From Squalus acanthias (taxonomy: Eukaryota), in assembly GCA_030390025.1 (NCBI GenBank), contig CM059431.1:128032001-128096000 (forward strand): a DNA stretch of 64,000 nt, read 5' to 3'. This document shows positions 1,026-20,400 of this stretch, piece after piece (within the stretch, counting starts at the first letter, position 1; each line of letters opens with the position of its first letter). The position numbers were made by a program, and so were the translations under genes. A model generated the notes under the pieces. That model saw only the letters and a list, made by a program, of their open reading frames with translations, had not been told where the DNA came from and ran no database searches.

Positions 1026-1726
1026 TTACGCACCACTTTCTTCGTTCACGCGCATGTAGCGTTCTCTCCATTCCCCTGTGTTCTCCTGCTTTGTGAGGCG
1101 TTTGCCTCTTTTGCAGTGCACGACCAATAGGTACACTACAATTATAACTTGGCACACTACCAAAATGTGGGAGGCTATCCTGATCCATGAAGGAACTTCA
1201 ATATTAATGAACAGATCCCACCACGGTGGGATTACTATGTCCAAAGTTTCTGTCCCTATCTCGACAGTCTTTTGTTCCAGGGTGTAAAAATGTTTTTGTG
1301 ATACCGCGACGGCTTTCAAAAGCTTGGTGAGGTGTTCAGGGAGAGGGGGAATGATGTATCCGAAATGCGCGACGAATCGCTGCAAGTCGGTGAAATTCTC
1401 TTTTACTGTTAGATGAACAGTGGATGGTTCAGGGATCGGGACAATTCGCTGCTGTGCCACTTCAACTTCAGCCCTGGGTGTAAAACAGAAACTGCTGTCA
1501 CTCACCGGACACCGGCTGTGGTTTGCATGCTGGTAGTTTTGCGCTGCAGTGGTAACACAATATGTTCCACCCCCTATGTAGGCCACCTGCGGAGGCACAT
1601 GATCTTGTGTCATTGCTTCCATGGTGCAATTCATGGGCTTTGCGCCAGCCGTTCTGAACCCGCATTGTGGTGTTAAAAAGGCATTCAAGTGCTGGGGACA
1701 CAGTATGATGTGTGCTGCCCGGCCAC
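1026..1726 (-). pseudogene. env: Element B env, C-terminal piece (Cys-rich region, TM anchor, cytoplasmic tail)
   Basis: Open frame nearly identical to the element A Env C-terminus; separated from the rest of env by the element A insertion. Confidence 0.92.
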
Positions 1727-3400
1727 TGTAGAATTCGCAATTATCGCGATTTGATTAATAAGGAGAAAACACAAAGTTTCGTTCAAACAGCTTTTTATTT
1801 CAGCAGAATGCTGTCAGGTTTAAATTGGACACAAGCAGCCTGTAAAATGGCCGCCGCACCTCGTGACAGAACATTCTAGACTTTTCAACAGGCAGACAAG
1901 ATGGCGTTCCATTAAACATTCTTGCAAGATCGATGACGATTCAGCACAGTGAAGATAATACACGAGACATTATGGGTTCACAGTATAAACATCGATACTG
2001 AAATCGGTCTCCCAGGTACAAAGGAAAGCCATTGCACCGAGTAATCAAGGGCCCATCCAAAGGACATTAGTATGTAAACTCCCAACGGCTCTACGATGAG
2101 AGAGCCGTTAGCAGGTAGTTATACATGACACTTGGAAGCCCCAAACCCCTCCAGGGAGAACACCGACCGATTTAACAATGGGAGAAGTATTAACAGGTAC
2201 TCAAACATTCATGAGTAGCCCCGAAACCCATTAAGAACGGAGATCACCCATACAGGACATTTGGGCGCCAAACCTTAAACAAAAGAATGGACATTATAGT
2301 TGGGCGGGAAACGGAAGAATTGTGCACTATAATTGCAGGCCCCAAACCGTCCATTCGCTCTCTTGCTCTTGACTCTTGCCTCTTGTTCGTGCTCCTGCAT
2401 TCGTGGTTGCTCCTGTGTTTTATCCGGTCGATTCGTAACCTCGTGGCTGCTCCTGTGTAAAAGACTGTTGAACTTTCTGATCCGTTCGGATCTACCTCGT
2501 GTCGCGTAACGAAGACCTATGTTGGTAACTGGCAGCGGAACCAAAGGCCCGAGATGAGATGAGATGAGATGAGATGAGAGGAGAAGAGAAGAAGACCATA
2601 TCCATCGCCACGGTCAGTAAATCCCGACCGCGCCTGTAGGTCGATCAGCCAAGTCTTCTCAAACAGGAAGTTTTCTTCGTTAAACTTTTAACAAGACATA
2701 TTGCATCAACGATAACTGGACTGTGCAAACACATCGTATCAGTGATATTGACAACGGTGCTCCACGATTATACTTTGAAGCCAACCAACAGAGGTCTTCA
2801 CTACAGCGGACGGTCCAGCCGACTGACCGAGCAGCAGAAGCAGTAAACAAGTGGGACCAGGAGATCTCCTGACCAACACGTGGGTGCTGCGGTGAAAAAC
2901 ATCCGATCAGCTATTCGGGTTTTCTCCGAGTTATTACGAGTGGTGAGCATGAGTCTCGAGATCCTACGAAGCTAGTTTAGGATAGATATTGATAGGGGAG
3001 GGTTTAAAGATTAAGGATATTTGTAATGTGTGCCCTATTTACGTTGTGCCGTTCGTTCCTCGTTTCCCTAAGAGTGATTATAACTGTTTGTAAGATTGTA
3101 CTGTCATTAATCTGTGCGTATGACATGTATTTCATAATTTTAAGTATCATGCAATAAAGATTTTCCATTTCGTACCGTTCAAACCAAGTCTACATGAGTT
3201 TTATCTCCATTACTGCTCTCGCATCTAAGTCCAGTGTCTAGAACCGTAAGGGAGAGTGATTCGAACCACTCACAGGGGTGTCTAGTGTTCCCAGACTGGC
3301 TGGAGACCAGGCCTAGACCCGCACTGACATACAGGCTGCACAGAGCCGCGTGAATCTCACAGGCTACGAGACACGCAGGGTCAGGAGAGAATCCCTTACA
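1727..3400 (+). repeat. Element A 5' LTR (1674 bp)
   Basis: Direct repeat of 9433-11096. TATA-like TATAA near 2328, (GAGAT)n near 2551-2580, AATAAA at 3153-3158. Confidence 0.96.
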
Positions 3401-3404
3401 GAAA

Positions 3405-5216
3405 ATGGCGACCGCGGCAGGACACTGGCAGCGAGAGGGTAGTGTGTTAGATTTTGGAATGACTGTACGAAATGTGATGCAGGAAAAGATAGCGGATTAC
3501 GTATTTGGAAAGGTTAATCTAACTAAAAAGTGGATAAGCGAATTGTTAGCGGATAAGAGCCCACTAGAGGCAGCTGAAAGGTGGACTGATAGTAAGGAGC
3601 ATAAAAAGGCAGTTGAGAAAGCAGTCTGGCTTATGTGCTACAAAAGGCAGGTTCAGATTTCAAACCAGACCAATACAGCGCTAACCGCTCGAATCAAGCA
3701 GTTAGAGGAGGAAATGGAGGAGAAGGTTTCTGGAGGGGAGGCGCTCATTAAGAGTTTAAATGAGTTACGCCAGGAAAGCCAGGAAGTCTCCAGTTACCTT
3801 AAAACAAGGGTAGAGTATCTCGAGTGCCAGATCACTGAAGCAAAATTGAACGAGAGTAGGATGAAGGAAAGATGTAACCGCCAAGCTGCCCAGATAAGAA
3901 CTCAAGAAGAGAGCTTAATGGGGGTTAGGTCGGCGTATAAGTTGGCCCTTGAGGATAAGTTTCAGGGAGCCGACCATAGCGCCTGCCAAAAAGAGATAGA
4001 GAGCCTCAAAAGGGCCGTGAATAATGCGAACGGCATGGTGTGCCTTATCAATCCGTCGGCGCGCCAGCCGCTAGTAAATGAGAGATTTAGAAATTCCCCA
4101 CCAAGTAAAGCAGAAGAAGTAGTAGCCACTGCGCCCTCCGCGCCACCCAGCTATTCAGAAACCTGGGTTAGGGAGGAAGCAACGGAAGAAACAAAAGAGC
4201 CCGTTGAAAAGGAAGTAGAAAAGGGATCGTTGTATCCAGTAACGGGGATTAAAAGGGGCCCAAGCAGAAACGGTGGGGAAGAACCGGGGGATCTCCTCGG
4301 ACAGCTGGTGTTGCCTCACAGTTCACATCAGCTGAGGGCCATGATAAACCACGTAAGGAAGCTGACCGAGATAGACGACCCTTCCGTACATTTCAGGGAA
4401 GTTGAGCAAGCCGCAGCCATTAACGGCTGCGATGATGGGGAGACAGCAAAAATGCTGCTGTTCTCGTTAGATAGCTCGGTCCTTCAGTGTCTCTCAGGCG
4501 ATAGCAAGAGGGGAAATAAAAGTTATGAGGAATTGAAAAATGAGGTCCTAGAAGTAGTGGGAGCGAACGACGGAGGTCCGTTTGCTAGAGTGGGACAGAC
4601 AGTGCAGATGGAGGGAGAACCCCCGAAGGTTTTTGCCGACAGGCTGTGGCCAGTATATGAGCGCAGCTGTCTAGGTGCGCCCGAGCGCGAAGATGTGGAA
4701 GGCGCCGCTTTAATTCATTGGCTTAGGTGCATCATAGCCAACAGTTTACCAGCCGTTAGAGAGCAGGCAAAAGCCTGGTTCGATCCCAATGACCTCAACC
4801 TTACGGAAGAGTCGGTCTTGAATCGACTTACGTTAGGTTACCGTAACATAAGGGGTATGACGACACGTCCCTTTAAGGGAAGAGTACATGAGGTACGACC
4901 CGCAGCCCCAGCTCAGAGAGAGTGGCATCAGGAGGGTAATCGCGCCCCACAGGCAAGTAATGCCTGTTACGGGTGTGGGAAGACAGGGCACTGGCGCAAG
5001 CACTGCAGGAACCCTTGGAAGGATTCCAAGGATAAAAATCCCGCGGTCCGAGCCCAGGCGCCTGTCCCGCCTAAGGAAGCAAAGGCACCCACCTCTCCCG
5101 AAGACCTCGAAGCAGTGTTAGGAGTCATGCGCAAGATGGTTTTGAATGCGCGTGGACAGGTGGCGGTCGCAACCGGCCCCGTAGGTGCCGCAGGACCGTC
5201 TAATAGTACCCAATGA
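3405..5216 (+). CDS. gag: Gag (603 aa): N-terminal coiled coil, capsid-like region, CCHC knuckle
   Basis: Intact ORF just after the LTR; CYGCGKTGHWRKHC zinc knuckle; homologous to element B gag. Confidence 0.92.
   Translation: MATAAGHWQREGSVLDFGMTVRNVMQEKIADYVFGKVNLTKKWISELLADKSPLEAAERWTDSKEHKKAVEKAVWLMCYKRQVQISNQTNTALTARIKQLEEEMEEKVSGGEALIKSLNELRQESQEVSSYLKTRVEYLECQITEAKLNESRMKERCNRQAAQIRTQEESLMGVRSAYKLALEDKFQGADHSACQKEIESLKRAVNNANGMVCLINPSARQPLVNERFRNSPPSKAEEVVATAPSAPPSYSETWVREEATEETKEPVEKEVEKGSLYPVTGIKRGPSRNGGEEPGDLLGQLVLPHSSHQLRAMINHVRKLTEIDDPSVHFREVEQAAAINGCDDGETAKMLLFSLDSSVLQCLSGDSKRGNKSYEELKNEVLEVVGANDGGPFARVGQTVQMEGEPPKVFADRLWPVYERSCLGAPEREDVEGAALIHWLRCIIANSLPAVREQAKAWFDPNDLNLTEESVLNRLTLGYRNIRGMTTRPFKGRVHEVRPAAPAQREWHQEGNRAPQASNACYGCGKTGHWRKHCRNPWKDSKDKNPAVRAQAPVPPKEAKAPTSPEDLEAVLGVMRKMVLNARGQVAVATGPVGAAGPSNSTQ
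3406..3423 (+). promoter_or_regulatory. Primer-binding site, tRNA-Ser-like, overlapping the gag ATG
   Basis: TGGCGACCGCGGCAGGAC lies 5 nt after the LTR and is identical in B (23778-23795, minus). The tRNA identity is inferred from the TGGCG...GGCAGGA pattern. Confidence 0.7.
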
Positions 5217-6371
5217 CTAGAGTCCACGCAGCCTGCCTACCTGTGTCCTTTTAAAAGACACGCACAGGAGGGGGTCTGCGGTGAGGAGGCCAGGTTAAAA
5301 GAGCAGGCCTTGCGGGAGGAGAACGCCCGCTTAATAGGGAAAATAGATAGGCTGGAAGGGCAGCTTAGAGAGCAGGCCCTGCGGGAGGAGAACGCCCGAT
5401 CAATGGGAGAGTTAGACGTGCTCAGGCTAGAAGGGCAGCTTAGAGAGATAAAAGCAGCCTACAGGGTAGCCAGGAGCAGGGAGTATGAGGATTTAAAACA
5501 GGATAGAAATCTGCAGCCTCCAGCAGGTGAGTTTTCACAGAAACAAGCAGGGGCGGTGGCCTGTCTTAAGGGAGGGGCCAGACCTGCGAGTGGGGAAGCA
5601 CAGCCCCAGGTAGGACCACAAGGCACACAGGCAGGCGTAGCAGCTTGCATCAGGGGAAGGGACATCCCGGACGATCATGCAGCGTTTTTCTGGAGTTGGG
5701 GGTTAGATGACGAGGACCCCAGGGTACCCTGGTCAGATGAGGATAGTGCAGATGAGCATAGTGATGACGACGGGTGGTTTCGGAGGAACGGTCCCTTTTA
5801 CGATATGGGGAGAATGCGGGCTGCAGATAGAGATCCACACAGGGTGGACACACAAGCTGCAGGTCCCGAGGACAGGAGGGAGGAGCTAGAGGAGGCAGGG
5901 CCAGCCGCTATAGGAGCACAGAGAGTACCAATGTGGTTCCCAGAGGGGTGGCCGCCCGCTTTGAACGTCCAGTCCTCAGGGGAGGCAGAGATCACGAGTG
6001 AAGGGCCGCCTGCTGGGCCGAGCAGGGCGGAGCCACGAAATGCCAGCCCCGAGGTTAGGGAGGCGGAGTCAGCGGAGGCGGAGCTGGCGACTGTGATGGA
6101 ACCCCAGGTCATCCCGTTGGAGGTCTCGGAACCCGGTCCGTCCGTCACGGAGCCCCCGCCCATAGCAACTCCCCGTAGGTCAAGCAGAGAACCCCAGCCC
6201 AGGAGGATGTGGTCATGTCCCCAGACTGCCCCAAGGCGTAAGTTTCAGGTTAAGATAACCCGGGTAGAGACAGGCCACATCGAAGCAGTAACAGGCTGCG
6301 GCAGATCAGAGGGAAGGGTCAGTGCCCTCCCACCGTCGGGAAGAGCTCGCAGCAGCCTTCTCAGAATTTAA
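5217..6371 (+). CDS. Readthrough ORF X (384 aa) in frame with gag: pol leader, coiled-coil repeat, integrase C-terminal tail homolog
   Basis: No stop from 5217 to 6368. Starts LESTQPAYLCP (B pol: LEPAQPVYLCP) and ends GRARSSLLRI (B pol: GKARGSLHRI). Confidence 0.8.
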   Translation, partial: LESTQPAYLCPFKRHAQEGVCGEEARLKEQALREENARLIGKIDRLEGQLREQALREENARSMGELDVLRLEGQLREIKAAYRVARSREYEDLKQDRNLQPPAGEFSQKQAGAVACLKGGARPASGEAQPQVGPQGTQAGVAACIRGRDIPDDHAAFFWSWGLDDEDPRVPWSDEDSADEHSDDDGWFRRNGPFYDMGRMRAADRDPHRVDTQAAGPEDRREELEEAGPAAIGAQRVPMWFPEGWPPALNVQSSGEAEITSEGPPAGPSRAEPRNASPEVREAESAEAELATVMEPQVIPLEVSEPGPSVTEPPPIATPRRSSREPQPRRMWSCPQTAPRRKFQVKITRVETGHIEAVTGCGRSEGRVSALPPSGRARSSLLRI

Positions 6372-6659
6372 AGGGGCCGCCCTGAGAACGGGCGGCACTG
6401 TAAAGTTATTAGTTTAAGGTTAAGTTTTAAAGTTTTAGTTAAGTTTTAAGTTTATTAGTTCAAGGCTAAGTTTGTAGTGTTTTAACAGATAACGATAAAA
6501 TGATGGGAGTTTTAAGGCTAGGTTTAGAGGAAGTCTATTCAGCAAACGTTGAAGTTTACGTGAGGCGAGGTCAGGGGACCCGCTCACCCTTCACAAAAGC
6601 CAGAGACTTTTTGCGAGGCTGGCTACCTCATTCTATCTGATCACAGGAACCAAGGAAGG

Positions 6660-9011
6660 ATGGAACGACTTATAGTATTGCTCGTGGCAATCGAATGTGG
6701 ATTGGCCTATCGAGGCCACACCAAGGATGTCGTGGTGTTTGGATGTTCCGGGGACACGGCCCCCATCGCGGTGGATGGGACCGGGAGACGGAAGGCAGAG
6801 GGGACCAGCACCTATTTCCACAAGGGAAGGTGGCCAGGATGGCTGGGAACGAACTCAACGGAGTATTCCAGCACATCGGGGTTCGCCTACAAAGAGACTT
6901 CTTTAATGTGCCCCAAAGTACGGATCATCGCACCCAGGATCAGCGTCACCGTCGGCAAACGGATTTGTTTGACCTGCAGTGGGGATGTCCCATTGAGCCG
7001 ATGGTGGTGGCTGCGAAAGCTGAGCAAAACTATGAGGAACTCTTCGGTTGAGTGGGAGCGACTGGGTAATAATACCCATCGGACAATTACGGGGACAGAC
7101 GGACAAGTGAAAGTCTGTTGGGACAAATGGTGGGAACCGGATGAGGGAATTTATGTTTGTATGTGGGGGTCAAAGTACGTTTGCCCCAAAGGCATCTCCA
7201 TATTTTTTATTAATCAGTGGCAGGATAACGGACAGGGGATGAGGTGGGATGCGAGCACCAGGGGGTGCGGAGCCCCATACTCTCCGATCCCAGTAAATGC
7301 CACTGAGCTCATTACGCGCCCACGCAAAGCCCCGCCCACGATTCCGGTGGTTCTAACTGAGGAAGAAGGGTGCCCTAAAGCTAGTAAGGGACCCGGGAAC
7401 GGTTTGGTACTGGTCCCCACAGACCAGATACTATTTCAGGGGGTACATTACGCGGTGGCCTCGGTGATTTTAAATCTCACTGAGGTACGGTTACCAGAGT
7501 GGTGCCCCAAAAAGACGGAACAGTTGTATCAGGTCCTGTTGACCAAGATGTTCAGGCAATTTTACGAGTTTGATTTTTCAGAAATTGATAAGACAAGTTT
7601 ATACACCGCACCGCAGGAAGCTTTGGATCAAGTAGGGAGGCAAAGAAGGGGTTTGGTGAACGATGCGTTCACTGCTTTTAACACAGGGACATCTGTGGTC
7701 AACGCTCTAGACAGTGTGGAGCTGCAGACCCAGATTAATGGTTTAAAAACACAGTTAAAGGACATCCTAACAGATGAGAATAAAGTGGTAGGGTCGGGTC
7801 TGCACGAGGACCAAGCCATGACTCTCCATTTAAAGGAAATCATAGCAGAGCTGGAGAAACATGCGCGTACGGTAAATGCCCTGATCAGGGAAGATCGGAA
7901 TGCATCCGATCAAGCTGCGCAGAACGAGGTGTGCGTGCTTTACGGGGCGTGGTTACTGGGCGAGGGCCGCAGTAATTTGGAGGATTTAAAACAAGGTTTG
8001 GTTCCGTCCTGGATAAGTAACAAACACCTGCGGGCGCTCCACCCTTTTCAGAACGCATTAAGTCCGTGCCAGCTCAGGCTAGCTTCAGAAGCTTACCCAG
8101 TCCCCGTGGACTGCGGACGTTCAAACCATACTATTATGGGAATAGTATTACGCATGCCGGTTTTGGGCAACACAGCAAAGCCCGCCCCGGTATATCGGGT
8201 AGAGAACATTGGTGTCATTCAGGGGGGAGCCCACATTCGTTATGCAGCGGTTCCACCTTACGTCATCCGCTGGGAGCAAACGATGACAGGTACAGATCTC
8301 TCTGGTTGTCGTGGCAGGGGAGCACACATAATACTGTGCCCCCAGCACTTGAATGCCTTTTTAACACCACAGTGCGGGTTCAGAACGGCTGGCGCCAAGT
8401 CCATGAATTGCACCATGGAGGCAATGGCACAAGATCATGTGCCTCCGCAGGTAGCATACATCGGGGGTGGAACATACTGTGTTACCACTGCAGCGCAACA
8501 CTACCAGCATGGAAACCGTAGCCGGTGTCCGGTGAGTGACAGCAGTTTCTGTTTTAAACCCAGGGCTGAAGTTCAAGTAGCACAACAACGAATTATCCCA
8601 ATCCCTGAACCATCCACTGTTCATCTCACAGTAAAAGAGAATTTCACCGACTTGCAGCGATTTGTCGCGCATTTTGGATACCTCATTCCCCCTCTCCCTG
8701 AGCATTTAACCAAACTTCTGAAAGCCGTCGCGGTATCACAGAAGCATTTCTATACGTTAGAGCAGAAAACTGTCGAGATAGGAACAGACATTTTGGACAT
8801 AGTGGTTCCACCGTGGTGGAATCTGTTCACTAATATTGAAGTGCCCTCATGGGTCAGAATAGCCTCCCACATTTTAGTCGTCTGTCAAGTGTTTATTGTA
8901 GTGTACCTATTGTTCATACATTGTAAAAGAGACAAGCGCCTCACCAAGCATGAGAACACGGGAGAGTGGCGAGAACGTTACGTGCGCGTGCACGATGAGA
9001 GCACCGTGTAA
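6660..9011 (+). CDS. env: Envelope glycoprotein (783 aa): signal peptide, Ig V-like domain, furin site RQRR, fusion peptide, heptad repeat, TM
   Basis: Hydrophobic N-terminus; RQRR|GLVNDAFTAFNTG at aa 327-343; N-glycosylation sequons; TM IASHILVVCQVFIVVYLLFIHC. Confidence 0.92.
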   Translation: MERLIVLLVAIECGLAYRGHTKDVVVFGCSGDTAPIAVDGTGRRKAEGTSTYFHKGRWPGWLGTNSTEYSSTSGFAYKETSLMCPKVRIIAPRISVTVGKRICLTCSGDVPLSRWWWLRKLSKTMRNSSVEWERLGNNTHRTITGTDGQVKVCWDKWWEPDEGIYVCMWGSKYVCPKGISIFFINQWQDNGQGMRWDASTRGCGAPYSPIPVNATELITRPRKAPPTIPVVLTEEEGCPKASKGPGNGLVLVPTDQILFQGVHYAVASVILNLTEVRLPEWCPKKTEQLYQVLLTKMFRQFYEFDFSEIDKTSLYTAPQEALDQVGRQRRGLVNDAFTAFNTGTSVVNALDSVELQTQINGLKTQLKDILTDENKVVGSGLHEDQAMTLHLKEIIAELEKHARTVNALIREDRNASDQAAQNEVCVLYGAWLLGEGRSNLEDLKQGLVPSWISNKHLRALHPFQNALSPCQLRLASEAYPVPVDCGRSNHTIMGIVLRMPVLGNTAKPAPVYRVENIGVIQGGAHIRYAAVPPYVIRWEQTMTGTDLSGCRGRGAHIILCPQHLNAFLTPQCGFRTAGAKSMNCTMEAMAQDHVPPQVAYIGGGTYCVTTAAQHYQHGNRSRCPVSDSSFCFKPRAEVQVAQQRIIPIPEPSTVHLTVKENFTDLQRFVAHFGYLIPPLPEHLTKLLKAVAVSQKHFYTLEQKTVEIGTDILDIVVPPWWNLFTNIEVPSWVRIASHILVVCQVFIVVYLLFIHCKRDKRLTKHENTGEWRERYVRVHDESTV

Positions 9012-9420
9012 TAGGAAAATGGCGTCACTCCCGCTCGCCACGTGCGCCGCGGAAGTTTGTACTCATTGTAAATACGTTGGAAACTCGATATGTTTAAGAG
9101 TTGGGATTTGTTTATTTTGGTGATGGTGTTGATTGTGTGGTTTTGGGTTTTGTTTTTCCTTTCCCTGAATAAAAGATGAATATACAGGTGATGCGTGAGG
9201 TATCGGCCTGGTTACGCCGGGAAGGAAAACAAGTGGTGTAAGTTTAAGGGCAAATGATGCCTACGGTGATATAAAATGTAATTTTCTTGGGAAATAAGGA
9301 CGACACAGAGACCCTAGTCAAGTTAAAATTTATGGGATTAATTTACTGGATTCGGAGTGAAATCGAGATAAGATTGCTCACCACTGAGTTTTTGATACGA
9401 TAAGCGGAGTTATTCGCATC

Positions 9421-9432
9421 AACAGGAGGGAC
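9421..9432 (+). promoter_or_regulatory. Polypurine tract of element A
   Basis: AACAGGAGGGAC immediately before the 3' LTR TG. Confidence 0.85.
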
Positions 9433-11096
9433 TGTAGAATTCGCAATTATCGCGATTTGATTAATAAGGAGAAAACACAAAGTTTCGTTCAAACAGCTTT
9501 TTATTTCAGCAGAATGCTGTCAGGTTTAAATTGGACACAAGCAGCCTGTAAAATGGCCGCCGCACCTCGTGACAGACTTTTCAACAGGCAGACAAGATGG
9601 CGTTCCATTAAACATTCTTGCAAGATCGATGACGATTCAGCACAGTGAAGATAATACACGAGACATTATGGGTTCACAGTATAAACATCGATACTGAAAT
9701 CGGTCTCCCAGGTACAAAGGAAAGCCATTGCACCGAGTAATCAAGGGCCCATCCAAAGGACATTAGTATGTAAACTCCCAACGGCTCTACGATGAGAGAG
9801 CCGTTAGCAGGTAGTTATACATGACACTTGGAAGCCCCAAACCCCTCCAGGGAGAACACCGACCGATTTAACAATGGGAGAAGTATTAACAGGTACTCAA
9901 ACATTCATGAGTAGCCCCGAAACCCATTAAGAACGGAGATCACCCATACAGGACATTTGGGCGCCAAACCTTAAACAAAAGAATGGACATTATAGTTGGG
10001 CGGGAAACGGAAGAATTGTGCACTATAATTGCAGGCCCCAAACCGTCCATTCGCTCTCTTGCTCTTGACTCTTGCCTCTTGTTCGTGCTCCTGCATTCGT
10101 GGTTGCTCCTGTGTTTTATCCGGTCGATTCGTAACCTCGTGGCTGCTCCTGTGTAAAAGACTGTTGAACTTTCTGATCCGTTCGGATCTACCTCGTGTCG
10201 CGTAACGAAGACCTATGTTGGTAACTGGCAGCGGAACCAAAGGCCCGAGATGAGATGAGATGAGATGAGATGAGAGGAGAAGAGAAGAAGACCATATCCA
10301 TCGCCACGGTCAGTAAATCCCGACCGCGCCTGTAGGTCGATCAGCCAAGTCTTCTCAAACAGGAAGTTTTCTTCGTTAAACTTTTAACAAGACATATTGC
10401 ATCAACGATAACTGGACTGTGCAAACACATCGTATCAGTGATATTGACAACGGTGCTCCACGATTATACTTTGAAGCCAACCAACAGAGGTCTTCACTAC
10501 AGCGGACGGTCCAGCCGACTGACCGAGCAGCAGAAGCAGTAAACAAGTGGGACCAGGAGATCTCCTGACCAACACGTGGGTGCTGCGGTGAAAAACATCC
10601 GATCAGCTATTCGGGTTTTCTCCGAGTTATTACAAGTGGTGAGCATGAGTCTCGAGATCCTACGAAGCTAGTTTAGGATAGATATTGATAGGGGAGGGTT
10701 TAAAGATTAAGGATATTTGTAATGTGTGCCCTATTTACGTTGTGCCGTTCGTTCCTCGTTTCCCTAAGAGTGATTATAACTGTTTGTAAGATTGTACTGT
10801 CATTAATCTGTGCGTATGACATGTATTTCATAATTTTAAGTATCATGCAATAAAGATTTTCCATTTCGTACCGTTCAAACCAAGTCTACATGAGTTTTAT
10901 CTCCATTACTGCTCTCGCATCTAAGTCCAGTGTCTAGAACCGTAAGGGAGAGTGATTCGAACCACTCACAGGGGTGTCTAGTGTTCCCAGACTGGCTGGA
11001 GACCAGGCCTAGACCCGCACTGACATACAGGCTGCACAGAGCCGCGTGAATCTCACAGGCTACGAGACACGCAGGGTCAGGAGAGAATCCCTTACA
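9433..11096 (+). repeat. Element A 3' LTR (1664 bp)
   Basis: Differs from the 5' LTR by a 10-bp indel (1871-1880) and one substitution seen by eye (G2938/A10634). Confidence 0.96.
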
Positions 11097-11284
11097 CCAC
11101 GACAACCCGAGAGATCGGTACCTGTCATCGTTTGCTCCCAGCGGATGACGTAAGGTGGGACCGCTTCATAGCGGATGTGGGCTCCCCCCTGAATGACACC
11201 AATGTTCTCCACCCGGTACACCGGGGCGGGCTTTGCTGTGTCGCCAAAGACCGGCATACGTAGCACTATACCCATGATGGTCTG
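11097..11284 (-). pseudogene. env: Element B env, middle piece between the A and C insertions
   Basis: Encodes MGIVLRMPVFGDTAKPAPVYRVENIG...DLSGCRG, collinear with A Env. Confidence 0.92.
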
Positions 11285-11478
11285 TGTGGTAACACAATAC
11301 AGCTTCCTGTGACTCGAACTTTATTGCATCACTTCCTGTGATTAGTCCAGGATAAATACTGGACTGAGCAGTTGGATCCTGGAGAGGCATAGAGTAAGAC
11401 CTCTTTTGTATGTAGCACCTTTTTAGTTGATTAAAGCTTACTTTAAGTTCACCACGCGTAAGGCTCATTCTTACGACA
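11285..11478 (+). repeat. Element C 5' LTR
   Basis: Identical to 15533-15726. Confidence 0.95.
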
Positions 11479-11556
11479 ATTTAATCAACTTTGAAAAACT
11501 TCGCACTCAAACTTTTTGGACGAACTCGGAACTAAGGATCCAGGGAATCACCCATC

Positions 11557-14500
11557 ATGGAAAACATCCTTAAACCATCGCGTCTCGACTTGGACCCAAA
11601 CACCCCAGCAGCCGGTAAGGTGTGGAAACACTGGTATCGCACGTTTGACAATTTTCTCGAATATTGCAAGGCTGATGATGACACAAAGTTGCGGATACTC
11701 ATCAACTGTGTCACTCCGAATGTATTTCAGTATGTTGAGGAATGGGGCAGTTACGAGGAGGCAATTCGGACGCTTAAAAGACTATATACTAAGACACCGA
11801 ATGAGGTCTATGCCAGACATCTACTAGCTACAGCCCAACAAGGGCCGGAGGAATCCATTGATAAATTCCTCCAAGAGCTTCGCAGACTTAGTATGGACTG
11901 TAACTTTCAGGCGGCCTCAGCTGAGCTGTACCGTGAAGAAATGATCCGTGATGCTTTCATCTGCGGGCTTGCCTCCCCATTTATACGCCAGCGTCTACTG
12001 GAAAGTAAGACACTTGAGCTTCAGAGAGCTTATGATATGGCTTGCTCTCTAGATCTGGCAAAAAGAAATGCAGACCTTTATACAGTGCCCAGACCTCGGT
12101 CTGCTGCCTTAACTACAGTCAGGCAATTTAAGAGGCCACAAGTGAACTCTATTAGGGAGGACTTTATCCCTGACGATCAATCTGATGACTTCACTGATGA
12201 AGAGGATGATGACCCCACTGTGGCAGCCTCTTGGCAATCTAAGAAATGCTTCTTTTGTGGTGATGAGTTTCACCCTCGGAAATTCTGCCCTGCTCGCAAT
12301 GCGTTTTGCAGTCATTGCAACAAAAAGGGTCATTTTGCAAAGGTTTGCCTATCAAGAGCCTCTACGAGGGCTTATCAAGCTAAGTCCTACCGAACTGCCC
12401 CGGTAAGGGCCTATCAAGATGTTCCGGCTAAAATCTATCGTGCTTCCTCTCGGGTTTTCTCTCGAAGAAACACACCTAGAGTTTCAGCCACTCTTTGTGC
12501 AACGACACCAATTACAGCTGCTTGTCCTCAGAACCTATTCCATGCAGCTACAAAAGCATCAATTAATGGACATACTTTAGATGCCTTAATTGACTCAGGT
12601 AGCACTGATAGTTTCATTAGGGAACAGATTGTTGCAGAGTTAAAGCTACATGTTTTCCCATCGGACCAGGCAATTGCGATGGCTCAGTCATCACTTAATA
12701 CCAGAATTTCTGGCTTTTGTATGGTTGAAATAACACTTAATGGTCACAGGTATCCCTCCACCCGGCTTTCGGTGCTCAAGGACTTATGTAGTGATCTTAT
12801 CTTAGGGCTGGATTTTCAAAAGCAGCATAAGAAGCTCACCATTGAGTTCGGCGGATCCAAACCTGAACTCACTATTTCTAATATACGACCTCGATTACCG
12901 TTCTGTGCATTGTCAGCAACTTCACTGGATGAACCCTCACTGTTTACCAGTATCCCTCCTCGATGCAAACCGATTATAACAAAGTCACGACGTTTCAGTC
13001 AGGAAGACCAGTCTTTTATTGCGGCTGAGATTTCTCGGCTTTTAGCAGAGGATATCATCGAGCCTTGTTCGTCGCCATGGCGCGCCCAGGTCGTTATTGT
13101 TAAGAACCCTCTACAACCTCACAAGAAACGGCTGTGCATTGACTATTCACAGACCATCAATCAATATACGGACTTGGACGCATACCCATTGCCGCGCATC
13201 GATGATATGGTTAATAAACTGGCTGAGTACACGGTGTTCTCAACATATGATCTGAAAAGTGCCTATCATCAGGTACCCTTGAAGGTCTCAGACAAGCAGT
13301 ATACGGCCTTTGAAGCCAATGGACGGCTGTATCAATTTCGTCGCCTCCCCTTTGGGGTCACTAATGGAGTGGCTGTCTTCCAGCGAGCAATGGATGACCT
13401 GGTCAAACAGGAAGACTTGAAGGATACGTTTCCTTATCTGGACAATATTACTGTCGCAGGTCGCAATCAGCGGGAACATGACGCCAATCTCCAACGATTT
13501 TGGGATGCACTCCAGCACCGTAATTTGACATTAAATGCGGCTAAATCCATTGAGTCACAACCAACCATCAACATCCTTGGCTATTGTGTGGGCAATGGCA
13601 TCATTAAACCTGACCCTGAAAGGCTTCGCCCACTCCAAGAGCTCCCGCAACCTAAGAATCCGGCCTCCTTGCACCGGGCCCTCGGCCTGTTTGCATACTA
13701 TGCTAAATGGATTCCTAACTTCTCGGACCGAATCCAACCTCTACTGAAGGCCAGCACATTCCCACTAGACACAGCGGCTGTTGCAGCCTTTAACCTCCTG
13801 AAAAAACAGTTGGAGAAAGCGGCTCTTCACTCCATCGATGAGAGTCTTCCTTTTGTTGTTGAGTGTGATGCCTCGGAGGTGGCGATCTCAGCCACTCTGA
13901 ATCAGGAAGGTCGTCCGGTGGCATTTTTGTCCAGGACTTTTCAAGGGGCTGAGCTACATTATCCTCCAGTCGAGAAAGAAGCTACAGCCATCATAGAGGC
14001 AGTACGGAAGTGGACTCATCTCCTAGCTCGCCAGCACTTTACCTTAATCACGGACCAGCGATCGGTCGCCTTCATGCTCGATAATCGAAAACGGACCAAA
14101 ATTAAAAATAATAAAATCCAGCTTTGGCGGCTGGAATTGGCCTCTTTTGGTTACACCATCCACTATCGACCTGGCAAGGAGAATGTGGCTCCGGATACCC
14201 TCACACGAGCATTCTGCTCCGCCATGGCACCCTCTACGCTCGTAGACATCCATGATGGGTTGTGTCATCCGGGCGTTACTCGCATGCTACACTTCGTGCG
14301 GTCCCGAAATCTCCCATTCTCTACCGGGGATGTAAAGAAGATGTGCTCGGACTGCAGAGTCTGTGCGGAATTGAAACCTCAGTTTTTCCGCCCCTCGGAT
14401 GGTATACTCATACATGCGACCCAGCCAATGCAACGGCTTAGCATCGATTTTAAGGGGCCGTTGCCCTCTTCAACTCGCAACACTTATCTATTGACCATGG

Positions 14501-15513
14501 TCGATGAGTATTCCCGTTTTCCGTTTGCCTTTCCCTGCCCCAATATGCTGACGACCACGGTTATCAGCTGCCTTGAGCAGGTATTTGCTTTCTGTGGCAT
14601 GGCATCCTATGTTCATTCGGATCGGGGCCCTTCTTTTATGTCAGGAGAACTCAAGGCCTATCTCTCGGAACGGGGTATTGCTGCCAGCAGAACGACGCCT
14701 TATCATCCGGTCGGGAATGGGCAAGTCGAGCGTTTTAACGCTATCATCTGGAATGCGGTACGTCTGGCTTTGAGATCTCGGGGCCTACCCAACCAGCAAT
14801 GGGAAGCAGTACTTCCAGACGCATTACACTCCACACGGTCCCTCCTTTCGACCGCCACAAATACGACGCCTCATGAACGGTTCTTCCGATTTCAGCGTCG
14901 CTCATCCTATGGGATATCTCTCCCGTCGTGGCTGACTGCACCGGGACCAGTGCTACTCCGAAGATATGTCCGGGCGTCTAAGAATGACCCCCTGGTAGAT
15001 GAGGTTGAGCTCACTGACGTCAACCCTACCTACGCCTATATTCGGTATCCTGACGGTCGGGAATCTACCGTGTCATTGCGGGATCTGGCTCCCTGCCCGC
15101 CGAAACATAGAGGGACACCAGGGGATGATATTGTACCAGGCACATCTCTGGGCTCACCAGGTGCCTCTCATCACGATCTGGATCTGACGCCGGCTGGTAC
15201 CTCACTCCAGCGTGCCGACCTGGGGCAGACTGACTATGAGCCCGTCGGGGCTCGCACGCGCAGCCACGATCCACCCCGTACCATACGCTCGGAAACGGAT
15301 CTGCCACAGCCCTGCCCGACACCCGTTCGGGCACCAGTACACAGTCAGGATCGTCCTAACCCCTCACAGAGCGGGCTGGATCACTCGGACTCTGGTCCAC
15401 GGCCCGCGGCGGGTAAACGGGCTAGGGGCCCTCTACCGCTACGAGAACCCAAACGGGTGCGGCTCTCCCTCGTCCGGCGGCTACGAAATGGAGGGAGCAT
15501 CCCGGCCTCCTAA
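11557..15513 (+). CDS. Gag-Pol polyprotein (1318 aa): double CCHC, PR, RT, RNase H, IN
   Basis: CFFCGDEFHPRKFCPARNAFCSHCNKKGHFAKVC; LIDSGS; YDLKSAYHQ...LPFG...YLDN; ECDAS; HHCC; SIDF...HSDRG...QVERFN. Confidence 0.95.
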   Translation: MENILKPSRLDLDPNTPAAGKVWKHWYRTFDNFLEYCKADDDTKLRILINCVTPNVFQYVEEWGSYEEAIRTLKRLYTKTPNEVYARHLLATAQQGPEESIDKFLQELRRLSMDCNFQAASAELYREEMIRDAFICGLASPFIRQRLLESKTLELQRAYDMACSLDLAKRNADLYTVPRPRSAALTTVRQFKRPQVNSIREDFIPDDQSDDFTDEEDDDPTVAASWQSKKCFFCGDEFHPRKFCPARNAFCSHCNKKGHFAKVCLSRASTRAYQAKSYRTAPVRAYQDVPAKIYRASSRVFSRRNTPRVSATLCATTPITAACPQNLFHAATKASINGHTLDALIDSGSTDSFIREQIVAELKLHVFPSDQAIAMAQSSLNTRISGFCMVEITLNGHRYPSTRLSVLKDLCSDLILGLDFQKQHKKLTIEFGGSKPELTISNIRPRLPFCALSATSLDEPSLFTSIPPRCKPIITKSRRFSQEDQSFIAAEISRLLAEDIIEPCSSPWRAQVVIVKNPLQPHKKRLCIDYSQTINQYTDLDAYPLPRIDDMVNKLAEYTVFSTYDLKSAYHQVPLKVSDKQYTAFEANGRLYQFRRLPFGVTNGVAVFQRAMDDLVKQEDLKDTFPYLDNITVAGRNQREHDANLQRFWDALQHRNLTLNAAKSIESQPTINILGYCVGNGIIKPDPERLRPLQELPQPKNPASLHRALGLFAYYAKWIPNFSDRIQPLLKASTFPLDTAAVAAFNLLKKQLEKAALHSIDESLPFVVECDASEVAISATLNQEGRPVAFLSRTFQGAELHYPPVEKEATAIIEAVRKWTHLLARQHFTLITDQRSVAFMLDNRKRTKIKNNKIQLWRLELASFGYTIHYRPGKENVAPDTLTRAFCSAMAPSTLVDIHDGLCHPGVTRMLHFVRSRNLPFSTGDVKKMCSDCRVCAELKPQFFRPSDGILIHATQPMQRLSIDFKGPLPSSTRNTYLLTMVDEYSRFPFAFPCPNMLTTTVISCLEQVFAFCGMASYVHSDRGPSFMSGELKAYLSERGIAASRTTPYHPVGNGQVERFNAIIWNAVRLALRSRGLPNQQWEAVLPDALHSTRSLLSTATNTTPHERFFRFQRRSSYGISLPSWLTAPGPVLLRRYVRASKNDPLVDEVELTDVNPTYAYIRYPDGRESTVSLRDLAPCPPKHRGTPGDDIVPGTSLGSPGASHHDLDLTPAGTSLQRADLGQTDYEPVGARTRSHDPPRTIRSETDLPQPCPTPVRAPVHSQDRPNPSQSGLDHSDSGPRPAAGKRARGPLPLREPKRVRLSLVRRLRNGGSIPAS

Positions 15514-15532
15514 TCTTTTGGGGGGGGGAGAA

Positions 15533-15726
15533 TGTGGTAACACAATACAGCTTCCTGTGACTCGAACTTTATTGCATCACTTCCTGTGATTAGTCCAGGA
15601 TAAATACTGGACTGAGCAGTTGGATCCTGGAGAGGCATAGAGTAAGACCTCTTTTGTATGTAGCACCTTTTTAGTTGATTAAAGCTTACTTTAAGTTCAC
15701 CACGCGTAAGGCTCATTCTTACGACA
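15533..15726 (+). repeat. Element C 3' LTR
   Basis: Preceded by a G-rich PPT; identical to the 5' LTR. Confidence 0.95.
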
Positions 15727-17198
15727 GTATGGTTTGACCGTCCGCAGTCCACGGGGACTGGGTATGCCTCTGAGGCTAGCCTGAGCTGGCACGGGCTTAA
15801 TGCGTTCTGAAAAGGGTGGAGCGCCTGCAGGTGTTTGTTACTTATCCAGGACGGGACCAAACCTTGTTTTAAATCCTCCAAATTACTGTGGCCCTCGCCC
15901 AGTAACCACGCCCTGTATAGTATGCACACCTCGTTCTGCGCAGCTTGATCGGATGCGTTCCGATCTTCCCTGATCAGGGCATTTACCGTTCTCGCATTCT
16001 TCTCCAGCTCTGCTATAATCTCTTTTAAGTGTAGTGTCATGTCCTGGTCCTCATGTAACTCAGACCCTACTACTTTGTTTTCGCTTGTGAGGATGCTTTT
16101 TAATTGTGTTTTTAAACCATTGATCTGGGTCTGCAGCTCCACGTTGTCTAGAGCGTTGACCACAGATGTTCCTGTATTAAAGGCAGTGAACATATCGTTC
16201 ACAATACCCCTTCTTTGTCTCCCCACCTGACCCAAAACTTCGTGTGGTGTGGTGTACAAGCTTGTTTTGTCAATCTCTGCAAAATCAAACTCGTAGAATT
16301 TTCTGAACATGTTTGTCAACAGGACCTGGTACAATTGTTCCGTCTCTTTGGGGCACCACTCTGGTAAACGCACCTCGGTGAGATTTAGAATCACCGAAGG
16401 CACCGCGTAATGTACCCCCTGAAATAGTATCTGGTCTGTTGGGACCAGTACCAAACCATTCCTGGGCCCCTTAGTGGTTTTAGGGCACCCTTCCTTCTGA
16501 GCCAAAACCACCAGAATCGTGGGAGGAGCCTTGCGTGGGCGCGTGATGAGTTCAGTTGCGTTTACCGGGATCGGGGAGATTTGAGCTCCGCACCCCTTGG
16601 TGCTGACATCCCACCTCATCCATTTCCCGTTATCCTGCCACTGGTGTACGAAAAATATGGATATACCTTTGGGGCAAACGTATTTCGATCCCCACATACA
16701 AACATATATTCCCTCATCCGGTTCCCACCATTTGTCCCAACAGACTTTCAAGTGTCCGTTAGTCCCCGTAATTGTCCGATGGGTATTGTTACCCAATCGC
16801 TCCCACTCAACCGAGGAATTTCTCATAGTCTTGCTTAACTTCCGTAACCAGCACCATCGGCTCAATGGGACCTTCCCATTGCATGTCAAACAAATCCTTT
16901 TGCCGACGGTGACGCTGATTCTGGGTGCAATGATCCTCACTCTGGGGCACAGTAAAGAAGTCTCTTTGTAGGCAAATCCGGATGCGCTGGAGTATTCCGT
17001 TGAATTCGTTCCCAGCCATCCCGACCACCTTCCCTTGTGGAAATACGTGGCGGTCTCCTCAGCCTTTTGCTCCCCGGTCCCATCCATCGCGATGCGGCCC
17101 GTGTCCCCGGAGCAACCGAACACAACGACATCCTTGGTGAGGCCCCGATAGGCCAATCCATATCCGATCGTTGCGAGCACTATCAGAATCGTTTCCAT
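15727..17198 (-). pseudogene. env: Element B env, N-terminal piece (signal peptide, Ig-like domain, RQRR)
   Basis: Open frame collinear with A Env up to DCGRSNHT, then runs into the element C LTR. Confidence 0.93.
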
Positions 17199-17477
17199 CT
17201 CTCCTGGTTCCTGTGATCAGATAAAATGATGTAGCCAGCCTCCCAAGAGTCTCTGGCTTTTGTGAAGGGTGAGCGGGTCCCTTGACCTCGTCTCACGTAA
17301 AAGGACATGTATGCTGGATAGACTTTAACTATTCCTATCTCTAACTCCCATCATTTTACCATTTACTTTTACAAATTAAGCTACAATCTTACCAAACTCA
17401 TAAAACTATAAACTTAAACTTATAAACTTATCCTAAACTTAAACTGTACAGCGCCGCCCGTTCCCAGGGCGGCCTAC

Positions 17478-20400
17478 CTAAATTCTGTGAAGGCTGCCAC
17501 GAGCTTTTCCCAGTGGTGGGAGGGCACTGACCCCTTCCTTTGATCTGCCGCAGCCTGTCGCCGCTGCGCTGGGACTGGGATCTCCCTGGGCTGCCTTGAC
17601 TTTGAACTTACGCCTGGGGGCGTACGGGGGACTTGACCACGACTTCCTGGGCTGGGGTGTCCAACTTGACCTACGGAGGGCTACTTTGGGCAAGATTTCC
17701 AGGGCCGACGGACCAGGAACCAAGAGTTCCACCGTCATGGCCTGTGGTCCTACCACAGCCGCTGGCTCAGTCTCCCCTGGCTCCGCCACCCTGAACTTGG
17801 GATTTGCAGTTTCTGGCTCCACCCTACTTGGCCCAGTATGTGGTCCTCCACTCGCAATCCCTACCTCCCCCAAGGGCAAGACTTCCAGGGCCGACGGACC
17901 GGGAACCGAGACTTCCACCGTCACGACCTGTGGTCCTACCACAGCCGCTGGCTCCGTCTCCCCTAGCTCCGCCCCCCTGGGCTCGGGATCTGCAGTTTCC
18001 GATTCCACCCTGTGTGGATCTCCACTCGCAGCCCCTATCTCCCCTGAGCTTGAGTCGAGGATGAAACTTTCGTCCTCCGACCCCAGCACCTCTCCGATCG
18101 GGTCACTACCTTGGTTGAGCTCCTCGAGCTCTTCCTCATCTGAATCCCAACACCAAGAAAAGATCCTACACTTTTCTAGAATGTCCTCTCCCCTCAAGCA
18201 GGCTGCTTTACCGGTCTGTGTGCCCTGCGGTCCTACCCGGGGCTGCGAGTCCCCACTCGCAGGTCTGGCCCCTGTGATTGGCCCCTGTGCACCCAGCTTA
18301 TACAACTTGCACTGGTTAATGTGGAACCATTTCGTGCGCCGAGGTACCTTTATGGCGTACACCATGGGACTCGCTTTATCTGCAATACTGTAGGGTCCCA
18401 TATACAGTGGTTCCAAACTCCCTACTCTGGCATAGTTCCTAACCATGACCTGATCTCCGACTTCCCACTCCTGCTTCTTACGAGGTTCCAGCAACAGGCG
18501 ATTGCCCTGATGCTGTCTTCCCATGTTCCCAGCCGCCTGCTCGTAAACCTGCTTCAGGCGCTCCAAGAGGGTCTGGACAAACTTGTCCCTTTCCACCTCT
18601 TTGAGCTGGACCTCAGTGAGCACCGGGGCTAGTAAATGGGTGGGGTGGGGGTTCGCATGATCCTCCCAGTCATCACCTCGTACGGGGAATACCCCGTACT
18701 CTTCGACTGGATGGCCCGGATTCCCATGAGGACTAGAGGCAGAATCTCCGCCCATTTTTGGGGCGAGTTCATAGTCTCTTTCCTCAGCTTCTCCTTGAGG
18801 GTCCGGTTCATGCGTTCAACAATCCCGGATGACTGGGGATTGTGCGCTACGTGCCACTTCCCTTCAATGCCCAAAAGCATGAGGGTGTTCTGCATCACCT
18901 GGCCGGTGAAATGACTCCCTTGGTCTGACTCCACGAAACGGGGGAGTCCCCACCGCGAGAACACTTCCCGGACCAAGATCTTGGCAGTAACCAGCGCCGT
19001 AGCTTTTCTACAGGGGAAGGCTTCTACCCATTTGGAAAACACATCCACCAAGACGAGGCAGTATTTGTAGCCTCCCTGGGTGGTGGGCAGGGGCCCTATG
19101 TAATCGATCTGTATCAACTGCCATGGTCCCTCCACCCTTCTGATGTGCCCCATGTGCACTTTCCTTTTCTGGGGGTCTGGGTTGTTTGCAGCGCACACAA
19201 GACAGTTTGCACAGAACTCGCGGACCTGCTCCCTGAGTCCCGGCCACCATCACGCCTGCTCTACCCGTTGCCAGGTAACCTCGGGCCTGGGGTGCCCTGC
19301 CCCCGGCCCCTCATGAGCCAACTGGAGGAATTCCCTCCTGTGCTGCTGTGGCACAACCCACTGCTCCTCGCGGAACAGCATGCCTTCTTTAACGGAGAGG
19401 GTTGTCGTACTGTACGGGTCCTCTACCTGCTTACCCTCAGTAATCGTTCTGAGAACTGCTTTTAGGGCGGGATCCTGGTTCTGGACGGTCTTAAGGTCTA
19501 GGGGCAGTGCTACCCTGGCGTTCCCGGGATTCCCTTCCCTGCCTTGGATCGCTGCCATGGGTCCGGGTCCATAGGGGTCCCAGAAAATGCCGTTACGGGC
19601 ACCCTCCCTGGCTAGCGCATCCGCCTGCTGGTTGACCTCCCCGCGGGGCTCTGTGGAGGAGTGAGCCTTCACCTTATGGATTTAAATGTCCCCTTCCTCC
19701 CCAAGTGCTGCTAGGATCTTTTCCAGCAAGGGCTTCACCGTTAAAGGTCGCCCGTCCGCGGAGGTATATCCACGGCGGGACCAAATGGCCAGGTATTCCG
19801 TACACGAATTGCACGTAAACATACTGTCCGACAAATTGTGTATGGGGTTGGGAAGATCTCTAGGTGGGTCACTACGTACGCCACCGCAGACGGCTCAGCC
19901 TGCTGCGCGCTCATGGTGCTAGGGAGCTTGATCGCCAGGGCAAGGTTTGCCGCAGGGTCATAAACTCCACACCCTGTGAGTCGTTCGCCAGCGGACACTG
20001 TGCTGGAACCATCAACATAAATTTCGCGACCTGTGGGATGTATCCCGGCCCGCAAACCTATGTTGACCTCCCACACCCCTTCTACCGAACACCGATGGGC
20101 TGTTCTGGGGTATACCAAGTTGGCCGCAAGCCTGGGCTCGCAAAGACCTTTAACTCTAAGATCCATCTGGGAAAGGAGAAGGGTCCAGCGCGCAATTCGA
20201 GTGCTGCTTACGGTCCCATCCTTAATCCTCCCATCTAGAAGCATCTTAGTTGGTGTATGATGGGTGAGGAGAGTGATGGGAGAGAGCCCTGTGAAGATCG
20301 CTGATCTTTTCACAGCCCAATGCGTGGCTAAAAGATGCCTTTCGCAATTGGAGAAACTCCTCTCCACATCCGTTAACACCCTGGTCGAATAGACAACCGG

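Follow-up and report, generated by a model that had tools for sequence, protein, structure and literature searches.

In-frame stop codons between gag and pro are standard in the gamma- and epsilonretroviruses and in snakehead retrovirus (SnRV), where the stop is UAG (PMC13517186), and the gag-pol readthrough strategy is an ordinary one for retroviruses. An in-frame UGA has been listed for SSSV (UGA-AGA), ZFERV (UGA-CGA) and RMEV (UGA-AGU), none of which is verified experimentally (PMC13517186), and a TGA is found at the gag-pol junction of XtERV-S (PMC8278194). Outside the retroviruses, the type II readthrough signals of alphaviruses (viz. Sindbis UGA-CUA and Venezuelan equine encephalitis virus UGA-CGG; PMC3159437, PMC13517186) follow a pattern in which a spacer of 8–12 nucleotides (nt) precedes a stem with a loop of 100–150 nt (PMC3159437), and in mammalian cells UGA-CUAG is efficient whereas UGA-CUA alone gives 1.5% readthrough (PMC4132726), in agreement with what a preliminary description of the present locus had said of this context. 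In the present work, we have analysed a 64,000 nt stretch of Squalus acanthias DNA (GCA_030390025.1, contig CM059431.1, positions 128,032,001 to 128,096,000 of the forward strand; hereafter the window), which carries two related endogenous retroviruses (ERVs), element A on the plus strand and element B on the minus strand, in both of which gag ends in CAA TGA CTA GAG.

The junction of A and B is like that of the alphaviruses in its UGA-CUA and 8 nt spacer and, for B, in a predicted long-loop stem and an in-frame polymerase, and the alternation of opal and Arg codons that is familiar at the alphavirus UGA-CUA site (PMC13517186) has a counterpart in the lokiretroviruses (CGA/TGA); it differs from the alphavirus signals in being a retroviral gag-pol junction, in having a structure that is predicted only, and in the 15 nt loop of A. 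SnRV and the ERVs resembling it, among them lineage I of CmiERV from the elephant shark (PMC4422223), have the reverse transcriptase (RT) closest to that of B among the rows read and share with A and B an in-frame gag-pro stop and an occurrence in cartilaginous fish, whereas the stop context of SnRV is UAG-GGC (PMC13517186); the terms “stop codon,” “readthrough” and “gag” are absent from the text of Han 2015 (PMC4422223). In SSSV, ZFERV, RMEV, XtERV-S and the MuERV-L-like contig L007 (UGA-AGG), gag, UGA and pol lie in one frame and readthrough is presumed, as in A and B, but CUA(G) does not follow the UGA in SSSV, ZFERV, RMEV or L007. Moloney murine leukemia virus likewise has an in-frame stop, an 8 nt spacer, a downstream structure and a minor Gag-Pol product, but its signal consists of UAG-GGA and an H-type pseudoknot rather than UGA-CUAG and a predicted stem-loop. 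The identical 7 nt motif is known from AQP4, OPRL1, OPRK1, and MAPK10 (Loughran 2014, PMC4132726), where it leads to short extensions of host proteins and to no polyprotein switch; the readthrough extension of AQP4 is conserved back to cartilaginous fish (PMC4132726).

The contrast drawn in the preliminary description between UGA-CUAG and the UAG and pseudoknot of the gammaretroviruses overstates the novelty of the junction, in view of the in-frame UGA listed for SSSV, ZFERV, RMEV, and XtERV-S and of that in the MuERV-L-like contig. It is the signal type of UGA-CUA(G) combined with a stem that appears to be undescribed for retroviruses. A 2026 review of readthrough in animal viruses treats cis-signals outside the gammaretroviruses as unknown, lists no retrovirus with UGA-CUA and does not contain the word “loki” (PMC13517186); the searched text of two further papers (PMC9040795, PMC12440569) and of two preprints holds no account of retroviral UGA-CUA(G) readthrough; and literature searches, excluding subscription journals and Repbase Reports, returned no description of it in any retrovirus.

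The gag/pol junction and its predicted stem

The shared sequence occupies positions 5211–5222 (+) in A and 21978–21967 (−) in B, where it had been placed previously. The gag gene of A runs from the ATG at 3405 to the TGA at 5214–5216 (603 codons) and is followed by 384 in-frame codons reaching to 6371, an open reading frame (ORF) here termed X, so that the sum of 603 + 1 + 384 gives the 988 amino acids (aa) that had been stated for a Gag-X product. In B, 743 in-frame codons follow the gag stop and cover the matches to protease, RT and tether. The junction thus combines a UGA and CUAG with a downstream frame that is in phase and has no start of its own, as in type II signals, and the stop context is UGA-CUA rather than the UAG-GGR of gammaretroviral type III readthrough. 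Within the window, TGA is followed by CTAG in 8 of 2234 TGA triplets, the A and B junctions included, and these two are the only ones of the eight with long frames on both sides.

In B the frame past the stop has its first Met at codon 24, which precedes the catalytic motif of the protease by ten codons, and since the Pfam protease match starts from residue 17, a product begun internally would lack part of the protease domain; in A there is no Met in X before codon 63. These positions argue against a non-canonical bypass of the stop by means of an internal promoter, reinitiation or a trans-acting factor, for which there is a precedent in Tca2, where such routes were left open (PMC2194720). The UGA-CUAG context also works alone in vertebrate cells (PMC4132726), and we regard a bypass of this kind as quite improbable.

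Our analyses have also identified a predicted stem 3' of the stop, after an 8 nt spacer, which is an addition to what had been observed previously. In folding predictions the same 5' arm, in the same register, pairs downstream in both A and B, with a core pairing probability near 1 in A at all five lengths of sequence folded and in B when at least 250 nt are folded. Shuffled downstream sequence pairs equally well with the arm in 17 of 1000 cases for A and 19 of 1000 for B. A stem downstream of the junction is on these predictions probable in both elements. Homology of the 3' arm of A to that of B is not supported, as 149 of 300 shuffles score as well. By eye, the hairpin loop of A (5248–5254) could form 7 A/U-rich base pairs with 5295–5301 just past the stem, a possible pseudoknot.

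We consider it likely, from the sequence and the frames, that type II stop-codon readthrough at a level of a few percent produces Gag-Pol in elements of the B type and Gag-X in those of the A type. Most ribosomes would stop at the UGA and release Gag, whereas a few percent, aided by the CUAG context and by the stem 8 nt downstream, would insert a near-cognate residue (in known cases mostly Arg, Cys or Trp; PMC13517186) and continue in frame. Pol-bearing members such as B would in this way make Gag-Pol at a low ratio to Gag. Of the signal, element A has retained the UGA, its 8 nt spacer and the 5' arm of the stem, the last of which is predicted to pair with a nearby partner, and it would yield a minor Gag-X consisting of Gag, 11 pol residues, an extra Gag coiled coil and a pol tail. 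Of the two products that had been proposed previously, the Gag-Pol of the pol-bearing family is the one for which readthrough is the best-supported interpretation, on the combination of an in-frame stop, a type II context, a predicted 3' stem and the occurrence of the motif in lokiretroviruses; a benefit of X to element A is conjectural.

The same stretch of sequence can also be examined as a splice site. Pol and X could be translated from a spliced RNA, as is the Pol of foamy viruses, with a branch region and its pyrimidine tract contained in the conserved 32 nt past the stop, which itself would never be read through. An AG after a pyrimidine-rich stretch is present at 5256–5257 in A (0.78 pyrimidine) and at 21936–21935 in B (0.72); these two candidates are in the same codon phase, one codon apart, 13–14 codons into pol; the env acceptor candidate scores 0.72; and A has kept exactly the stretch that holds the candidate tract. 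However, the tract that goes with the AG within CTAG is weak (0.5), the pyrimidine tract would be buried in the predicted stem, and splicing requires neither a stop in frame nor a CUA context nor the alternation of CGA and TGA in the lokiretroviruses. The candidate acceptor in A is, moreover, AAG, which is an uncommon splice acceptor, and among the rows listed a contig of one possible RNA run (its RNA status is a guess) spans both the stop and the candidate unspliced. A spliced origin of Pol and X is consequently an improbable explanation in our view.

Conservation of the junction and its parallel in lokiretroviruses

The gag genes of A and B differ by a synonymous divergence (dS) of 0.93 with a ratio of nonsynonymous to synonymous divergence (dN/dS) of 0.22, and the stop and its context are nonetheless common to both. 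Because the long terminal repeats (LTRs) of A are almost identical, the TGA was present in a replicating element. Contigs from 4 of 24 listed sequencing runs (four organism labels) were compared over positions 4700–6000, and in three of these runs contig pieces keep TGACTAG (viz. X10, 5196–5335, with 1 difference; X7, 5182–5282, with 1; and X17, 5213–5520, with 3), all of the differences falling outside the stop according to the variant table. A-type contigs of other runs differ by 1–3 letters per 100–300. Pol-type contigs in runs X10 and X7 match to position 5221 and then follow the amino acid sequence of B with mostly third-position changes. In the closest named Gag, the skate model P0003 (51% identity), the initiating ATG has the context seen in A and the last residue, Gln, falls at the corresponding position, which would by itself point to a cartilaginous fish as the most likely host. 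A more distant relative with DNA was not found in IMG/VR or in a metagenome scan, whose 80 loci were all at or below 35% identity. In five retrovirus-like metagenome loci with a protease just past the stop, the contexts are TAG-CGC (two), TGA-GCC, TAG-AGG, and TGA-AGG, none of them CUA. Among the class III-like contigs L002, L003, L005, and L007 the other in-frame contexts are TAG-CGC, TAG-AGG, and TGA-GCC, and the MuERV-L-like L007 has TGA-AGG at 4148–4165.

A parallel to the A/B junction is found in the 24 lokiretrovirus consensus sequences of Dataset S1 of Wang and Han 2021 (PMC7947760), the frames of which were read by eye. In 7 of the 24, gag ends at TGA-CTA with pol in phase; the next base is G in Ofa, Cne, Pyo, and Sau and A in Bsp, Dcl, and Lro, the gag end of Cne being judged by its likeness to kin and the Bsp consensus shifting frame ~45 codons later. 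At the same junction Pfl has CGA-CTA, and Tfu and Npa have an undetermined residue; of the remaining consensus sequences, nine carry an annotation as a single open gene, and the other five start at pol or lie outside the comparison. A stem can be formed by eye ~8–9 nt past the stop in Ofa, Sau, and Cne, and none in Dcl. In the consensus sequences with TGA-CTA or CGA-CTA, the annotation of pol begins at an arbitrary non-ATG position farther downstream. The words readthrough, stop codon, suppression and frameshift do not occur in the main text of that paper (PMC7947760). Lokiretroviruses resemble A and B in their F-like Env, in a coiled coil before the capsid, in the presence of a tether and RNase H, and in the TGA-CTA gag end (in the seven), but the RT of B is not of the loki type and the Gag here has a CCHC knuckle.

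The distribution of the TGA also bears on whether it could be no signal but a lesion, produced by CpG decay of an Arg codon where gag and pol had earlier formed one uninterrupted frame. Such CGA-to-TGA decay did happen at gag codon 22 of B, CGA-CTA is present in one lokiretrovirus consensus, and for about ten of them the annotation gives a single fused gene. A lesion would, however, have to account for the same TGA in A and B at their gag dS, in the nearly new insertion A, in contigs of three other runs and in seven separate lokiretrovirus consensus sequences, and for a skate Gag model that ends at the same place. These observations largely refute the lesion explanation, to which we attach very little probability.

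A number of observations weigh against readthrough as we interpret it. The stem of B is absent from folds of 100–150 nt; other positions score as well as the junction at 3 of 755 sites in A and 47 of 857 in B; the junction ranks 7th among 93 folded windows in A and 2nd among 31 in B; and an arm as strong as that of B occurs at one of six unrelated TGACTAG control sites, so that the structural support is counted as moderate. The Tca2 junction, in which gag, UGA and pol are accompanied by a predicted structure, did not by itself give readthrough in yeast (PMC2194720). The lokiretroviruses are a separate lineage and provide a parallel rather than family copies. Among copies of the family, conservation of TGACTAG, which had been proposed as a check, is seen in the three runs, but the identity of A and B at the junction is unexceptional: since the six-codon identical run there is only the fifth-longest in the A/B gag comparison, and since 16 of the 37 Leu codons shared by the two gag genes are identical anyway, A-versus-B conservation taken alone is weak support. 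No variant falls within 5211–5222 among 40 of the 141 variant rows, those 40 being the ones checked.

Composition and possible role of ORF X in element A

ORF X is a mosaic in three pieces, with 11 pol codons followed by a private segment of 108 codons and by a non-enzymatic tail of ~265 codons. Its second part matches a five-sequence Gag profile with 22.9 bits, a score not attained by any of 500 residue shuffles or 500 heptad shuffles; one sequence of this profile, P0255, was added after its likeness to X part 2 had been noticed by eye. Only the profile gave this match: pairwise BLAST of X part 2 against single Gags reached an E value of 0.001 to P0004 and found no match to the Gag of A or to P0255, no DNA likeness exists between X part 2 and the gag of A itself, and a Protein Atlas search of X and Env returned sub-threshold matches only.

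Several characteristics of X suggest that it has been under selection after the loss of pol. Both joints of the mosaic are in frame, which is expected by chance in ~1 in 9 cases; X part 2 has no stops in frame as opposed to 9 and 9 in the other two frames; both indels seen there in contigs of other runs keep the frame (+3 at 5542 and a net −75 at 5347–5429); and the tail is open in both A and B, although unconstrained sequence would be expected to carry several stops. On the other side, the tail has a dN/dS of 0.75 (0.56–1.04) as against 0.22 in gag and 0.10–0.14 in env, which indicates little amino acid constraint and also counts against the interpretation favored here, although the disordered C-terminus of gag has a similar value of 0.63. 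Much of the path separating the A and B tails may lie in pol-bearing ancestors.

These same data can be accommodated if readthrough is real in the family but only a passenger in A, the signal and the hairpin being inherited from a pol-bearing parent and X having no selected role, an explanation that is compatible with readthrough in B-type elements and that falls only a little short of an even chance in our estimation. In addition to the high dN/dS of the tail, the close similarity of the A-type contigs leaves little time for decay, the X-specific part, if unconstrained, would at 2% divergence be expected to have stayed open in 75% of cases, and a deletion between two paired arms could preserve a stem without selection. 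The in-frame joints, the stop-free private part with its frame-keeping indels and the value for the gag C-terminus speak against a passenger, as does the lack of support for descent of the 3' arm of A from that of B.

The 988 aa Gag-X would be made only if readthrough works, and any usefulness of X is a matter of inference. We speculate that A keeps the signal because a coil-enriched Gag joins the lattice, or for shelter from nonsense-mediated decay, the link of which to viral readthrough is unresolved according to the 2026 review (PMC13517186). The broadest form of the proposal is that UGA-CUA(G) with a stem is an overlooked and possibly ancient route to Pol in SnRV-like viruses and lokiretroviruses (UGA/CGA), and that, in addition, A is under selection, with a rebuilt hairpin and a coil-rich minor Gag that tunes assembly or shields the RNA from decay; taken as a whole, this proposal is doubtful and is offered tentatively.

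Setting, family placement and significance

The window holds a nest of insertions, in which the older B is interrupted by the young A and by a Gypsy element that together split its env; the features are summarized in Table 1. The LTRs of A differ from one another by 1 substitution and one 10 nt indel, and A is a very young insertion. Its gag, X and env are all intact and its pol enzymes are absent; as A is itself without enzymes, it would have to borrow them from pol-bearing kin. B was by origin a full gag-pol-env element, and the present copy is dead, with stops in gag, pol in four pieces and env split. Its premature stop at gag codon 138 reads TAA CTA GAG, a chance look-alike of the junction. 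The divergence of A from B is unequal, with a dS of ~0.5 in the pol tail and env compared to the higher value in gag, which suggests recombination between subfamilies.

Table 1. Positions in the window of the junction, the predicted stems and the parts of elements A and B.
Feature	Positions	Strand	Basis or characteristics
A UGA-CUAG candidate readthrough site	5214–5220	+	Sequence
B UGA-CUAG candidate readthrough site	21969–21975	−	Sequence
A predicted stem, 5' arm	5225–5246	+	8 nt spacer after stop; pol-derived, common to B
A predicted stem, 3' arm	5262–5283	+	Beyond A/B divergence point; 15 nt loop
B predicted stem, 5' arm	21964–21944	−	8 nt spacer after stop
B predicted stem, 3' arm	21778–21754	−	~165 nt on, within protease frame
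X part 1, pol codons 1–11	5217–5249	+	Comparison with B
X part 2, A-specific segment	5250–5573	+	Two tandem copies of Gag coiled-coil stretch (~5286–5492)
X part 3, non-enzymatic tail	5574–6371	+	Matches region past integrase in pol frame of B
Element A	1727–11096	+	4 bp target duplication, 1723–1726 / 11097–11100
A 5' LTR	1727–3400	+	LTR comparison
A gag, 603 aa	3405–5216	+	N-terminal coiled coil, capsid-like region, CCHC knuckle; ATG 4 nt past LTR
A env, 783 aa	6660–9011	+	Furin site; paramyxo/pneumovirus F-like fold (predicted)
A 3' LTR	9433–11096	+	After polypurine tract
B 5' LTR	23801–25505	−	LTR comparison
B gag	21973–23796	−	Premature stops at codons 22 and 138
B pol	17478–21972	−	Protease, RT, tether, RNase H, integrase, SH3, tail; in four pieces
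B env	1026–17216	−	Split by Gypsy element (11285–15726) and by element A
B 3' LTR	From ~633, past window start	−	14 differences from 5' LTR in 633 nt inside window

The layout of LTR, gag, pro, RT, tether, RNase H, integrase, env and LTR with a target duplication is that of a Retroviridae-type ERV, and the best solved-structure matches of the RT are retroviral RTs, ahead of Ty3. Identity of the B RT over 132 columns compared by hand, with reference rows from the supplement of Wang and Han, is 65 to SnRV, the closest among the rows read, ~50 to MuERV-L, and 46 each to simian foamy virus and Loki-Sau. In an unlabelled RT tree, B falls into a group (85/77) with unnamed relatives and with those from frog and coelacanth, separate from a MuERV-L-like clade. 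A model of the A Env (mean model confidence, pLDDT, of 67) has as its best Foldseek match the F protein of PIV5 (E 3e-12, TM score 0.31), and all 38 rows listed are F proteins; searches of the Env sequence against PDB and Pfam returned no F protein. By the RT of B, the family appears to be SnRV-like (class III-related), with an Env that is F-like on the predicted model. SnRV-like ERVs occur in the elephant shark (PMC4422223, PMC4977317), and an F-like Env is a lokiretrovirus trait (PMC7947760). A placement of A and B among the lokiretroviruses themselves was considered and dropped, as the B RT lacks, by eye, the motifs found in all of the loki rows read, and shares 46/132 columns with Loki-Sau.

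Some other characteristics of these elements and their relatives were also observed. In A (3401–3425) as in B (23800–23776), the gag ATG comes 4 nt past the 5' LTR and overlaps the likely site of primer binding, and the start is arranged in the same manner in the skate and metagenome Gag models. The pol frame of B extends ~265 codons beyond the SH3 region of integrase (17478–18275) and has an internal 186 nt repeat, whereas the frog relatives stop right after SH3. Four frog and coelacanth proteins labelled “NYNRIN-like” in databases (P0005, P0006, P0126, P0127) are Pol of the A/B retrovirus group, and in three of these the first Met lies within the protease, which is what would be seen if an upstream stop or a missing start had truncated the model. 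Close to the N-terminus of Env there are weak immunoglobulin-like matches, both in A and in relatives. The Gypsy element inside the env of B is young, with identical 194 bp LTRs and one frame of 1325 codons, and lies 188 nt from the insertion site of A. A solo LTR of the A/B family, with 78% identity to the LTR of B, is located at 60262–61851.

The junction described here provides a concrete and cheaply testable candidate readthrough signal for retroviruses at the level of fish, and the same UGA-CUA motif sits unremarked in published lokiretrovirus sequences. The long-loop stem predicted in B and the short hairpin predicted in A form a natural pair for examining the effect of loop length on readthrough. 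If readthrough takes place as proposed, the signal would bear on how the ratio of Gag to Pol was set in the earliest retroviruses.

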